In this document: piece by piece, positions 1 through 6,000 of the stretch
How positions within the stretch are numbered: the first letter of the stretch is position 1
How the letters are laid out: each line of letters begins with the position of its first letter
Source: a virus
Lineage: Duplodnaviria > Heunggongvirae > Uroviricota > Caudoviricetes
DNA length: 38,098 bases
Reading direction: 5' to 3' (one strand)
Virus record (IMG/VR): IMGVR_UViG_2563366991_000005
Position numbers: made by a program

Positions 1-3000
1 TTGCCTCCCCCCCGTTGATGGGTAAAATAGCCGCAATTTTTCGTTTTCAACAAGCGCGGCGCGATGCCGCTTACTCAAGAAGAAAGAATTATGACGTTGT
101 CTCCTTATTTGCAAGAGGTGGCGAAGCGCCGCACTTTTGCCATTATTTCTCACCCCAATAATTAAGCCAAAATTAAAGCTCTTTTACTCTTTCAAAATCC
201 TTTCAATTAATTGAGTTATAATCATATAATTCATTTAATAACATGATGTTATGTTGTTTCTTTGATTGAAAATTCTTTCATGTAACTTTAAATCGATCAG
301 GTTGCTTTCATCAAAAATCTGTACATGTGCTTGTACATAATGTACAAAACAGCAGAGGTGTTTTGTTATTTGTACAAGGTGAGTAATGGCGTTGTCTGAT
401 GCGTGGTTGCGTTCAGTCGTTGGAAAGGAACGTGATAAGGTTTTGGTTAAATCCGATCGTGATGGTTTGTCTGTCAGAGTATCACCGAAAGGTCGCGTAG
501 TGTTCCAATATCGTTATCAATGGGCAGGGAAAGGCGAGCGCCTTGATATCGGAACTTACCCGGCAACTGGATTAAAAGAGGCCAGAGAAGAAGTTATCCG
601 TCTTCGTGGTGAACTCGAGTCAAACCGCAATCCACGATTGGTCAAGCAGGTAGAAAAACGCAAAGCTACTGAAGCCATGACGGTGGAGTCTGTGATCCGT
701 GCCTGGTATGCAGCATATTGTGTAAAAAATAAAAAAGGTTCTGAGCAGATACTCCGCTCATTTGAACTGCACCTGTTCTCTAAAATCGGGAGTATCCCTC
801 ACGATGTAGCTACATTGCATGATTGGTTAGAGGTCCTGGAGCCTCTTAGCACTAAGACTCCAGCAATAGCAGACCGATTGCTAATTAACGCAAAGCAGGC
901 CCATGTCTGGGCGTATAAGAGAAAGCTCATTGAAACTCGCCCGCTGTCGGATATCACGGGTAAAGATATGGATATCCGTAAAGGTCAGAAGAAACGGTTT
1001 CTGACACATGATGAAATTAAAATCCTTTATGCTGCGATCGATGGTTCTCGAATGGTTCCTAAATACCGGGCCTTCATTAAACTATTGCTGCATTTTGGTT
1101 GCCGTAGTTCAGAGCTAATTACTGCCCGGGTGGACGATTTTGATTTCATTAATAAAGTATGGACTGTACCACCAGAACGACATAAGACTGGGGAGATAAC
1201 AGGCGAACAGCTAAAGCGACCCATTATTGAACCGGTTGAAGAGCTTATAAAGTACGCTATCTCTATGAACAATGGTTCCGATATGCTTTTTACTAAGGAA
1301 GGAAGCAGGGAACCCGTTGGTCGGACATCATTGCAGTCGCTGCCTTACAATTTAATGCAGTACGCATGGCGGCGTTTGGGGTATCAATTCCCTCATTGGT
1401 CTCTTCATGATTTGAGACGAACAGCACGAACAAACTTTTCTGATCTTACTGAGCCTCATATTGCAGAAATAATGCTAGGTCATAAACTGCCAGGGGTATG
1501 GCAAGTTTATGATAAGAGCGATTATCTAGAAGAACAGCGTAAAGCCTACCAGGCATGGTGGGAGAGAGTTGAATCGATTGTTACTTGTACTAACTCATGC
1601 TCCAATTGATACAGTATGCCCAGCCAGTATGTAATCAAATTTGGCAGCCTGCTTTGAGCGTAAAGCGAGAGCTGCCATTATTCTTATATTTGAACGCTAT
1701 ACGATTAACTTTTTGACTGATAGATCAACTGGGTTCAGGATACCACCTGCAATATAAGCAGGTGATGGATAAATATATCATTATTGGTCAGGATATTTTG
1801 ATAGTTCAACTTCAAAAGTTGAATTTTTGTTTTTTAGAACATGATCAACACCTTTATAAAGTTGCCGTAATTTATTTACTGCATTTATATCAATGGAAGC
1901 AGGGGAGAATGCTCGGATAAGATTGTTGAAGATTTCCTTGGAGTAAGCAGATTTCTTCTTTTTATCAAGAGAGTCCATTCTTTTAATAATGATTTCTAAA
2001 AGATATGTCTTTTGATTGTTATGCATTTTTTCTGAAGTAATAATCAGATACATCATTTCCCCCAAGGTTTTAGAGGCAAAGAACTCTGGAGATTGCTCTT
2101 TATCTTCTGTTGTCCAGTTATCATAATTGAGGTGTTCTGTTGCTCCTGCCCATATATTACAACGGCTGATTAGCTCATATATTAAATAATCAAATCGCAT
2201 GGGGAACTCTCTATTTACATCTATGCTACTAGATTTTTCATAGCTCTCAAGTATTTCCTTTAGGAAACAACGATAATACATGAGCCACATATTGTTTTTT
2301 GAGCGTTTGAATATTGCTGTAGATACCATAACATCGAAAAACGTCAATCCAACGAAGATTGGGCATTCCCAACGCTCATCACTACTTGAATAGTAATTAT
2401 CTGGATGATTGTAAAAGCAAGAACTCCCTTTTTGTTTTTTTATGTAGCTAATGACATAATCACCCACAGGTTTCCATATTTCTAAATCTATCGCCATGCG
2501 AATATCATTTAAATAAAAATTAAGCAAGGCATTACTTTCGTCGAGTGCATACTCCCCTGTATATGAACGATTTTGGTTGTCTCGTAACTCCCTATACATA
2601 ATGCTGTTTGGGTTAGATATTAAATACGTAAAGAAATTTGTATTATACTCACAATTATATCTAAGCTGTAAGCAGGTGGCCTTCATAGCTACGTGAGGGT
2701 AAGTATCAATTAGATAATGTGAAAAAACCTTTGATTTCAGAAGATTGGATATATTTAATTGAATATCATTTTGTCTTTTGTCTTCATAAGGGAAAAACTT
2801 TGACAGAAATCTCCTGACTTTTTTGAATCGTAATTTTTTTACCTTCTCTTCATCCATTTCAATGGGAGATAATGAAGGGGCTAAGTAATTATGTACGCGA
2901 ACATACCATTTTTTATTGCTGATTATATTGAATAGCTGCTCGTGATATTTATCAAAAAGATATCCTAGTTGTTCTATTTTTTTTGCGCGCAGATATGTTT

Positions 3001-6000
3001 CTGAAACACTGATCCAACAGGTAAGGTTTGCTTTTGGTAGTATTTTGCCCTGTACTTTAATTCCAAAAAATATAATTATGATACAAAGACAAGTAAAAGC
3101 CAATGTATCTTCGTTAAAACCGAGTATCCAAGGGATCGGTTTTATCGGGAAAACACTTAGCAAAACCTTAGAATATATAACTGTTAATATTGTTGATATA
3201 AAAAAGATAATGAATACTAAATTAAATTTAGATATGCGTAACCTTAAATCAACACGTCTCTCATCCGTTAAGAGAGTATACCAAGCAATAAGTATGGCGA
3301 AGACTGCTAGTAAACCATTGGCACCCATTATCACCTCTGAATAAGCTACATTTAGACATTCATAAAAAACTTTAATACTATGTACTTATTGTAACAAATT
3401 CTGGGTGTTTTCATCAGAATTATCTGCATCATCCTGCACCATTAATTTTGGTGCTTCGCTGGTGGTATTTGCAACATCTACTTCAGGCACAGAGTAGACA
3501 GTCTGATTAGGTTTAGCTCTGTGCCATAGATGTGTTAACTCACATCTGAACGAATACGTATTACTCAATAACTCCCGCAAACCTGTATATCTTGCGTGAT
3601 GCCCATTTATTTGGGCAGGATTTAATATCAGGATCTGGGAAGTCAGGCCTGTATTTCTGGCCAGTTCTCCTGTTTACGCTGTTCCAGCGAAGAACTGTCG
3701 ATACTGAAACGCCGCAGAAATCAGCGACTTGTTTAGTTGTCATTAAGTTGTTCATTACTTCACCTCCTGCGGCGACTCCGGTAGCGGCATCCAGTGGGTT
3801 ACTTTCGATGCCGGTTCTTCCCCATTGTCAGTAACTGCCCACCATTTGTTTCTCGAACAATCGTAATACCCTTCGAAGGTATCGCACTCAGTCCAGCCGT
3901 AAGACTTACCCCAACACCAAACATACTGTTTATCGTTCGGCATTCGCTCACTACAGCTTATCCAACCATCCGGAGTTACCGGAGAGTTGCCCGACAGCTT
4001 GTTCAACTTGTAAGTCTGGCTTACAGGTTTGGCACCATGAGGCATGGTGGCGCGGCAGGCGTTCCAGCCTTCATCAAAACCGACTATGCCATTATTTAAA
4101 GACGGACGAGCATCTGGCACCACCAGTACTGGCTTGGCTATATATAGCGACTGAACATACCAGCCCTTTGATAACCAACTGTCAGCAATGTTTTTGCTCC
4201 TGGTTATTGCCGGAATACCTAAGCCATTGTCTGAATGCAGCCATGCCACCGGCTCCTCTTCCAGCGATGCCAGAGCAATTTCATAAGCACGGCGCTCAAT
4301 ATCGTCTCGAACCTCTAGGCTGCTGATTCGTTCTTTGATTTCTTTAATCAGTTCTTTATTGGTAAATGTGGTCATTATGCTCCAGCCTCCGGCGCTTTGG
4401 GTATTACTGCCCAGTGAGTGATATTGAAGTTTTCAAGGTCCCCGACCTGAAATGTCCACTGCCATTCTCCGGTTTCTTTTTGTCCCCAGGTGTACCAGAG
4501 AGAACGCCAGCCAATCAGCCAGCCTTCTCCGTTAGCATCAAATAACAGAACACTTTCATTTGCTGGTGGCAGTTCAGCTGACACTGGTATTATTTTGTTT
4601 TCCAGTGCCGCACATTTAGCTTCAAGCGCGTCGAATTTACGTACCAGGTACTCAGCATTTGTTTCGTTCACTTTCAGATCTCGCGGTACACATTTCCCGC
4701 GAAGAAACCCTTCCATTTCGAAAACATTCATGCGCATTTGCGTAACTCCGATAACTCGTTAAAACGTTCCATAAACATCCCGTAGGCATGGCCAGGTGCC
4801 AGTGGAATCACGTTGAACATCTCTGTTGCTGGGATGCCTTCCAGTACAGGCCAGAAAGAGCCATCATCAAGCCCGAGATCGCGGCGTTCGGTTGCCAGCA
4901 TGATAAGATCGGCATATTTCACGGGCGTACTCATAACTGGGGGTAACCCGTATTTCTCACGGATTACGGCATCTATTTTTTCTTCCATCCGTTTATAGTC
5001 AGGAAGAAGGCGTTTCAGTGGCGCGGGAATGTCCTGACAATACGCTTCTGTTGCATCATGCATTAACGCTTCAAAAGCAAATTCCTGCGGTACCAGCTGG
5101 CTGCAAAGCACCGCATGTTGGGCGACGCTGTAGAAGTGTGAAAGATGTCCTGCAAAGCGACAGATATTTGAAAGGGAAACCGCGATATCGTTAATAACGA
5201 TGTCATCTTTATTTATCTTGTCATAATAAAAATGCTTCCCGGAAAAAGTTTTAATAAATGACATTTTGTTCTCCACGTATATGCGCTGCACCGCGCTGAA
5301 TTTGGGTAAAAGGAAGCCCTCACCATCCGGTGATTATTGAGTTAATTACGTTTCCATAAATGCCCCCGCAGGGGCATTTGCAGTAATGAAATCAGGCGGT
5401 GAAAGTACCAATAAAGGTTTCTACTTTGCTGTCTTTGAATTTCTCAACAAGCAGATCACGAAATTCGTTAGCCATATCTTCCTGCACCGCTTCCAGCTGA
5501 ATAATGCGCAGAACCAGTACAGGACGATCGCCAGTGATAATGCTGAGGCGTAATTTAAACGGACGTTCTTTCAGACCTTCAAACGGAACGCATTTAAATT
5601 CAAATGCCACTGGCATAATGTCTTTGGTCTTCGCTTCGACAGATTCCATCAGGGAGCGTTTGCCGCTGAAGTCATTATCTTCAAAATCAGCGGTCTGGTT
5701 TGCTTCAATCGTGATTTTACGGATTGCCGCAGCCGCTTTTGTTGCCTGAATGGCGTCACCATTAGCATCAAAGCCCACAAGGTAATCGGCCCAGTCTTCA
5801 ATCCATTCTGCCAGTGACTTCTGGGAGTTACGCTCGCCGTTAACAGACAACAGTGCAGAGAACGGTGCTGTCTTTTTCAGTTTGAGAGTGGCGGTGTTAT
5901 CTGCGTGACCTGGTTCATTAATAGTACCCAGGTTAAGCACACTGACGGCACGCATATTATCAGCATCGATAAAGCAGCGGGTGCCTTCATCTGCAAGATC

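Follow-up and report, generated by a model that had tools for sequence, protein, structure and literature searches.

The window examined here is a stretch of 38,098 nucleotides from a virus of the Caudoviricetes (IMG/VR record IMGVR_UViG_2563366991_000005); it represents a lambdoid prophage that sits next to yjjG in Escherichia coli and whose early region (yfdP/Q/R, DUF551) is CPS-53-like. Between its integrase (int) and excisionase (xis) genes lies a gene for a 515-amino-acid (aa) protein of an uncharacterised family. Judged from its orthologous copies, this gene is the only cargo of a transposase-less cassette of the IS481 family of insertion sequences (IS), inserted at the xis/int junction with duplication of 7 bp. 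The product is a predicted inner-membrane protein whose N-terminus is placed outside and whose large domain is placed in the cytoplasm. We consider it rather likely that it serves as a stand-alone anti-phage defence factor, expressed in the lysogen from its own promoter. That it might be a single-polypeptide sensor-effector, which would abort infection by compromising the membrane, is a tentative proposal that we rate as possible rather than probable. Cassette, defence role and sensor-effector together make up the best explanation that we can offer, and as a whole it has a slightly better than even chance of being correct.

The limits of the cassette were set by nucleotide homology. Three orthologues were compared at the junctions, one from a Yersinia integrative and conjugative element (ICE) region, one from an island in a metagenome-assembled genome and one from another phage. 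BLAST homology with all three stopped at common window coordinates, 3523/3524 and 1633/1634, and junction alignments pushed these limits out to ~3557 and ~1590. The orthologous cassettes (L002, L003 and L033) are 1,970-1,979 bp long and have the tips TGT...ACA. Their ends match the consensus TGTATTAGCTCAAACTTGACCTGACA, which IS481-family copies share, at 20-25 of 26 positions, and each is flanked by a perfect (7/7) 7-bp target-site duplication (TSD), the three being GATAAAT, AATAGTG and CTATATC. The terminal inverted repeats of L002 are identical at 25 of 26 positions (z=13.9), and in L003 a gapped alignment matches the two ends over 94 nt (z=16.4); none of 500 shuffles scored as high in either case. 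The match in L033 is weaker. An ungapped repeat finder missed the terminal repeats, and gapped alignment combined with shuffles was needed. The two 7-mers that flank the window copy agree at six of seven positions; agreement this good or better has a chance probability of 0.003. The 515-aa gene is the sole long open reading frame (ORF) between the cassette ends, with no rve or other Pfam domain, and this cargo is present at four unrelated insertion sites, which suggests that the cassette has been mobile.

The same ends are found on autonomous units of 1.2 kb that encode an rve DDE transposase, named 'IS481 family transposase' in RefSeq. Exact 7-bp TSDs (CTTTATC, CCTTAAT and TTTTAGC) flank three copies of the IS that have these termini and lie in finished E. 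coli genomes. The terminal motif was detected in 19 viral contigs, 83 plasmids and at least 120 metagenome contigs, and other cargo, 0.8-6.7 kb in length, lies between inverted copies of it that are flanked by perfect 7-bp duplications. Two 6.7-kb sister cassettes (L089:4447-11154 and L104:6598-13308) carry a complete type II cyclic-oligonucleotide-based antiphage signalling system (CBASS), comprising a CdnG-type cyclase (E=1.6e-53), a Cap2-like E1 protein and a Cap5 HNH-SAVED effector (E=5e-170). They reside at different sites, with the perfect 7-bp TSDs CTTTATC and CATCACC. A published description of this cassette family was not found in the literature searched. We also considered whether the 7-bp repeats could be the crossover core of a tyrosine recombinase or the work of a nearby invertase. 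This was rejected because the 7-mers vary by site and because elements with these ends that encode an rve DDE transposase also leave a 7-bp footprint.

Five viral contigs (L033, L041, L045, L050 and L052) have the same terminal repeats and the TSD CTATATC or its complement around four different cargoes. Either this is a strongly preferred site in phages, or cargo has been swapped between conserved ends by recombination.

At the right junction of the window copy, the terminal repeat supplies the last eight codons of int (CTNSCSN*, window 1586-1609), and the end of the element falls at int codon 401 of 408. Other integrase alleles of the yjjG-site family diverge from gene position ~1206-1220 onward. 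Because its ends are decayed, the E. coli copy in the window is probably no longer mobile. Distant orthologues in a P2-like phage, Pantoea and Pseudomonas (L034:6001-7548, L018, L016 and L009) share the coding region only and have no recognisable cassette ends, so the gene moves, or has moved, by other routes too.

The nucleotide sequence of the leader of the gene (window 3329-3558), ~200-230 nt upstream of the start codon, is conserved between orthologues located in unrelated elements. Within it lies TGTTACAAT, which is probably the promoter element of the 515-aa gene, as its sequence and conservation suggest (Table 1). A scan with consensus promoter and terminator models gave nothing above background and did not call TGTTACAAT. 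Two other readings of the leader were tried. A structured or known RNA was not supported, with no Rfam match above threshold, an unfavourable covariation term and a z of -2.2, and a conserved small ORF was rejected since start codons and residues vary among the orthologues.

An earlier note on this DNA had described a 517-aa ORF opposite to int and between int and xis, about three N-terminal transmembrane (TM) helices followed by a large domain rich in Y, N and K, and DNA markedly more AT-rich than the flanking phage genes. All of these descriptions hold. The ORF runs from 1781 to 3334 on the minus strand and encodes 517 aa if a GTG start is used. The ATG at 3328 is the likelier start, giving 515 aa, because GAGG lies 5 nt upstream and because the same start is used in the RefSeq entry WP_001564320.1, which is identical to the 515-aa protein and labelled 'hypothetical protein'. 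The computed chance of 517 stop-free codons at the local base composition is ~1e-18; this value, together with ~900 relatives of the protein, shows that the ORF did not arise by chance. Its GC content is 0.328 (0.30 at third codon positions). Int has a value of 0.449, the early genes downstream have 0.466 and the window as a whole has 0.496; the AT-rich block spans ~1700 to ~3400. The protein contains 7.0% N, 6.4% Y and 8.5% K. The note had also called the gene a moron; what had been missed is that it belongs to an IS481-derived cassette with inverted repeats and a TSD.

Table 1. Features of the cassette, its gene and the surrounding prophage (window coordinates).
Feature	Position	Strand	Basis
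Non-autonomous IS481-family passenger cassette, 1,973 bp: leader, one gene and trailer, no transposase	1586..3558	-	nucleotide homology limits
Left (5') terminal inverted repeat, decayed, CGTATTCGTTCAGATGTGAGTTAACA	3533..3558	-	17/26 vs consensus TGTATTAGCTCAAACTTGACCTGACA
Right (3') terminal inverted repeat, decayed	1586..1611	+	17/26 vs consensus TGTATTAGCTCAAACTTGACCTGACA
Left 7-bp TSD copy AGTAATA, overlaps xis stop codon	3559..3565	-	6/7 vs right copy
Right 7-bp TSD copy AGTAACA, inside 3' end of int	1579..1585	-	6/7 vs left copy
Inverted repeat GGCACAGAG-22 nt-CTCTGTGCC, 9 bp, partly within extended terminal-repeat region	3486..3525	-	conserved in leader
TGTTACAAT, extended -10-like probable promoter element, ~60 nt upstream of ATG	3388..3396	-	near-invariant in orthologues from unrelated elements
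Coding sequence, 515 aa + stop, predicted inner-membrane protein of uncharacterised family (PHROG 13820)	1781..3328	-	ORF, homology, AlphaFold2 model
N-terminal membrane module (predicted), aa 2-94	3047..3325	-	hydropathy, positive-inside rule, conservation
Cytoplasmic all-alpha domain (predicted), aa 95-515 (~420 residues)	1784..3046	-	
Integrase (P4/CPS-53 type, yjjG attachment site)	386..1609	+	Pfam Phage_integrase + Arm-DNA-bind_3
Excisionase, 64 aa	3561..3755	-	phrog_1553 'excisionase', E=7.7e-36, full-length match
Cytosine methyltransferase flanking the DUF262/HEPN-like pair	13734-14774	+	name from near-identical RefSeq record
MAE_28990-type HEPN-like nuclease, 229 aa	14743-15432	-	name from near-identical RefSeq record
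DUF262 protein, 386 aa	15435-16595	-	name from near-identical RefSeq record
DNA methyltransferase, other flank of the DUF262/HEPN-like pair	17188-18240	+	name from near-identical RefSeq record

Hydropathy of the 515-aa protein placed TM helices at residues 2-20, 37-55 and 76-94. The membrane module consists of TM1, a cytoplasmic loop with a conserved RRxDLxLR motif, TM2, a periplasmic loop with a conserved P..W..GF motif (P64, G70 and F71) and TM3. Across 186 family members, loop 1 carries 3.8 K+R and loop 2 carries 1.7, and this pattern is present in 159 of the 186. The large domain is placed in the cytoplasm because of hydropathy and this family-wide positive-inside rule. Conserved cysteine pairs were not found across the same 186 members. 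Conservation peaks in TM1/loop 1 and in residues 240-395. Because TM1 and loop 1 are conserved as strongly as the core of the cytoplasmic domain, they are not likely to be a passive anchor. Near-invariant residues of the cytoplasmic domain are S242, Y245, E247, N266, N307, H346, W348, Y351, E374, Y384, W393 and D495. Position 346 is His in 94% of the family but Asn in the E. coli protein, and Asn is also found in some intact Vibrio members. The architecture of three TM helices plus a helical domain is present in all ~190 members checked, and among these no domain fusions or N-terminal swaps hinting at function were seen.

The only family match of the protein is PHROG 13820 ('unknown function', E=9.4e-41), with aa 6-462 aligned to profile positions 10-446 of 505. 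Together with 30 diverse relatives, it had no match in Pfam, NCBIfam, PADLOC (0 matches in PADLOC-DB 2.0) or PDB by sequence or profile, and cluster look-ups returned no names. A word-indexed search yielded 52 clusters, nearly all gammaproteobacterial and all 'hypothetical'. An exhaustive profile search yielded 909 representatives at the 50% identity level with E<=1e-3, of which 467 had E<=1e-30; nearly all are 500-600 aa long and match end to end. The AlphaFold2 model is confident (predicted local distance difference test score 88.3, predicted template-modelling score 0.83) and resembles generic alpha-solenoids only. A Foldseek search with this model gave no match at E<=0.001, and no enzyme or nuclease fold was detected. 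Searches of papers by accession found no characterisation of the protein. A relative at 21% identity is encoded in the 119.6-kb Klebsiella phage record vB_Kpn_1825-KPC53 (CP058330.1, 33591-34907), so that the family reaches into a large Klebsiella phage genome.

In the yjjG-site prophages, the int-xis slot is a hotspot for variable cargo. The xis and int genes are convergent and the 515-aa gene lies literally in between, directly downstream of xis and on the strand opposite to int. The yjjG-site integrase (at least 90% identity) is present in ~700 of 5,426 E. coli genomes. When the gap between int and xis (window 1610-3560) was inspected in eight sampled strains (loci L021-L028), seven different cargo sets were found. 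In two of these strains, O157:H7 AC-5 and NCTC9112, the slot is occupied by dsr1 (defence-associated sirtuin), a validated defence gene. Other cargo includes single or paired genes of 150-342 aa and a three-gene operon, one product of which is a DUF4325 STAS-like protein. The unannotated cargo genes in the sampled strains had no PADLOC match.

The gene and its relatives were examined at 13 independent loci, at each of which the gene stands alone, with no partner gene conserved between them. Type I restriction-modification (R-M) systems are neighbours at five of the 13 loci, and in Spongiibacter the gene starts 9 bp past hsdR. Further neighbours are Hachiman with AbiH, HipA, a TIR-like gene, HNH genes, integrases and ICE transfer genes. 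Members outside phages are common, both beside R-M systems and in Vibrio, Pseudomonas and Shewanella ICEs. In other phages the gene occupies different AT-rich slots: between gpS and gpV of a P2-like phage, beside an invertase and tail-fibre genes, and two genes away from a McrB_N-HNH gene. Recurrent co-localisation with known defence genes and occupancy of a hotspot that holds known systems are thus both observed, as plain counts.

An independent machine-learning prediction points in the same direction. DefensePredictor (Science 2026, PMC13092281) gives 1,041 predicted, uncharacterised E. coli defence clusters in its Table S10. WP_015740443.1, a 436-aa frameshift allele of the gene from O103:H2 12009, is included there as a 'Predicted novel defense gene' with a mean log-odds of 8.35 vs. 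a stringent cut-off of 4 (PMC13092281). Overall, 45% of the DefensePredictor units were validated (PMC13092281). Among the supplements consulted, accessions of the gene appear in Table S10 alone, and none of the alternative int-xis cargoes is among the supplement rows listed. The earlier note had regarded the int-xis interval as a site for accessory genes, the family as not known and the protein as a candidate for exclusion or defence. The yjjG-site family, with its variable cargo including dsr1, bears out the first point, and the lack of any Pfam, NCBIfam, PADLOC, PDB or specific fold match agrees with the second. The third gains support from the slot cargo, the 13 contexts and the DefensePredictor entry, and the protein is still a candidate. 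Homology to a housekeeping membrane enzyme, which the note had set against its own proposal, was looked for and none was found. Foldseek and topology prediction, which it had named as checks, gave no specific fold match and three TM helices with a predicted cytoplasmic domain.

The gene was found in 35 of the 5,426 complete E. coli genomes, always on the chromosome, and every copy has 99.4% identity or more to the window gene. Carriers include O157:H7, O103:H2 and O45:H2 strains. The gene is also present in phages converting to Shiga toxin (Stx) types Stx2c and Stx1a, and the copies in Stx2c phages are intact. Three independent +/-1 frameshift alleles were identified at homopolymers, namely T6 (window 3200, aa 43), A8 (2977, aa 118) and A6 (2026, aa 435). 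Each is common to several strains, and the frameshifts were verified in five strains. Judged by their lengths of 1,553 or 1,555 bp, 16 of the 35 E. coli copies may be frameshifted; the window copy and 18 others are full length. Recurrent frameshifts suggest that the gene carries a cost. Alternatively, they could represent phase-variation-like switching, neutral decay or, in part, homopolymer errors of long-read sequencing.

We propose the following course of events. An IS481-derived cassette would have moved into the xis/int junction, with elements of this kind moved by an rve-type DDE transposase encoded elsewhere. The gene would be expressed in the lysogen from the promoter in its own leader. 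The cytoplasmic helical domain, through a pocket of conserved acidic and aromatic residues, may recognise a phage component at the membrane. The TM1-loop module may then oligomerise or rearrange, compromise the membrane and abort the infection.

Several points weigh against this interpretation. The inverted repeats of the window copy are not significant alone (z=-0.8) and no empty int-xis site was found in the 5,426 E. coli genomes; for these reasons the transposon assignment of this copy rests on orthology. An acyltransferase and a multi-TM permease-like gene are among the cargo of other same-end cassettes, so that cargo status does not prove defence. About 16 of the 35 E. coli copies appear frameshifted and His346 is replaced by Asn, and the allele may be weakened or dispensable. 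E247 and E374, near-invariant and surrounded by aromatic residues, could be catalytic, in which case the protein would be an enzymatic effector. No known defence hidden Markov model of PADLOC matches the protein. The gene is not among the tested units in part 1 of 3 of Table S6 of DefensePredictor, by which 94 units were tested, and its defence role is a prediction.

Superinfection exclusion would account for some of the same observations. An inner-membrane protein would block or intercept incoming phage DNA or ejection proteins and the cell would survive. The predicted inner-membrane site, the conserved P64, G70 and F71 of the periplasmic loop and the presence of the gene in a prophage as well as in Stx-converting and P2-like phages are consistent with this model, and the nuclease SNIPE (PMC13190303) is a precedent for a membrane-bound defence acting at injection. 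We consider exclusion unlikely, however, because exclusion proteins specific to phages seldom show the breadth that this family has outside phages (R-M neighbours, and Vibrio, Pseudomonas and Shewanella ICEs) and because conservation lies mostly in the large cytoplasmic domain. Moreover, the PHROGs scan gave phrog_13820 only, with no homology to annotated exclusion families of the Sie, Imm, gp15 or Cor types, and no nuclease fold was detected. A cargo unrelated to defence, with some other accessory role at the membrane (envelope or stress physiology, a niche factor, or a benefit to the cassette), is likewise improbable. Its defence neighbours would then reflect shared integration hotspots, where mobile elements gather whatever their cargo. 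The acyltransferase and permease-like gene in same-end cassettes, the lack of a defence model match and the overall DefensePredictor validation rate of 45% fit such a role. It is harder to reconcile with the defence genes that recur near family members in 13 unrelated contexts and with dsr1 in the identical prophage slot. Furthermore, the protein has no similarity to a transporter, a glycosyl- or acyltransferase or another housekeeping family, and three TM helices with a cytoplasmic helical domain are unlike an O-antigen- or envelope-modifying enzyme.

A specific candidate of this type, an O-antigen or envelope conversion gene (GtrABC or Oac), was rejected, since Pfam and NCBIfam searches gave no GtrA, glycosyltransferase or acyltransferase domain and the protein has three TM helices only. 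GtrC and Oac have 9-11 TM helices. It is also conceivable that the copy of the E. coli lineage is a decaying relic, inactive or being lost and without effect in this lysogen, with the family perhaps functional elsewhere. The three independent frameshifts, the 16 copies of 1,553 or 1,555 bp, the His346 to Asn change and terminal repeats decayed to 17/26 would all fit. We regard this as very unlikely, because the window copy and 18 others are full length, none of the 35 copies falls below 99.4% identity to the window gene and the Stx2c phage copies are intact. In addition, the His to Asn change also occurs in intact Vibrio lineages, and some of the long-read frameshifts may be homopolymer errors.

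A second defence-like module is present in the same prophage at 13734-18240, between the Q antiterminator and the lysis genes; the names of its genes were carried over from a near-identical RefSeq record (Table 1).

Returning to the reading of the 515-aa gene as a defence factor carried by a cassette, the present analysis adds to the earlier description a family far larger than it seems at first sight, the absence of any known relative by sequence or fold among the databases searched, and an IS481-derived mini-transposon whose siblings carry CBASS. How moron and defence genes move among phages, plasmids and islands is a long-standing question, and a trans-mobilised IS481-type cassette with a 7-bp footprint would be an explicit vehicle. 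The conserved cassette ends can be used as a search handle for cargo genes, including new defence candidates. If the protein does protect against phage, it would be a new type of immune protein, with a large unannotated family and a confident fold that has no match. Because pathogenic E. coli carry the gene on Stx1a- and Stx2c-converting phages, it could affect the range of further phages able to infect these strains. A much broader statement is possible but doubtful. By this statement, transposase-less IS481-family mini-transposons would be a general and not yet described vehicle that brings single defence genes or whole systems (CBASS, the 515-aa gene and many unannotated ORFs) with their own promoters into phages, plasmids and ICEs, thereby creating morons. 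The 515-aa protein would then be the first known of a new class of immune sensor-effectors, membrane-anchored and made of a single polypeptide, whose fold has no relation to that of any characterised protein.

The 515-aa protein, whose model resembles generic alpha-solenoids, has 5-10% sequence identity with HEAT/ARM-type alpha-solenoid proteins, with no Foldseek match at E<=0.001 and no repeat family found by Pfam, and it is predicted to be membrane-anchored. Known inner-membrane superinfection-exclusion proteins are P22 SieA, T4 Imm and HK97 gp15. With these, and with SNIPE (PMC13190303), the protein shares the feature of being an inner-membrane protein made by a prophage, which is a prediction in our case. 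It differs from them in its much larger size, with a cytoplasmic domain of 420 aa, in its wide occurrence outside phages and in having no nuclease domain. Membrane-acting abortive-infection effectors include RexB of the lambda RexAB system and the TM effectors of CBASS, Pycsar and retron systems. Like these, the gene is found in prophages and defence islands, and its few TM helices are conserved beyond hydrophobicity, suggesting an active role at the membrane. In contrast to them, it has no PADLOC similarity, and a single polypeptide would serve as both sensor and effector; none of the contexts shows a partner gene.

In the yjjG-site prophage family, Dsr1 is found at exactly this position, directly downstream of an integrase of the same type. 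Like other cargo of prophage hotspots, to which the P2/P4 defence hotspots are comparable (PMC9122126), the 515-aa gene is a single AT-rich gene that varies between otherwise syntenic prophages. Unlike Dsr1, its product lacks a SIR2 or other recognisable domain and is predicted to be membrane-anchored, and the protection that it may give is a prediction. The element as a whole shares the termini TGTATTAGCTCA...CTGACA and the 7-bp TSDs with the E. coli IS481-family IS, which is 1.2 kb long and carries a single rve DDE transposase gene. In place of the transposase, the window element has the gene for the 515-aa membrane protein with its own leader, and its ends are decayed to 17/26. The closest parallel is with mobile insertion cassettes (MICs, or 'transporter IS'), such as MIC231 of the IS231 group, which keep the ends of an IS and carry passenger genes but no transposase. 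The window family resembles MICs in that its terminal repeats match those of an autonomous IS, the TSDs are of the same 7-bp length as those of that IS, a passenger gene replaces the transposase and one cargo is found at several unrelated insertion sites. It differs in that it is derived from IS481, in that its cargo includes CBASS and many unannotated genes, and in that its insertion sites are in phages, ICEs and plasmids.

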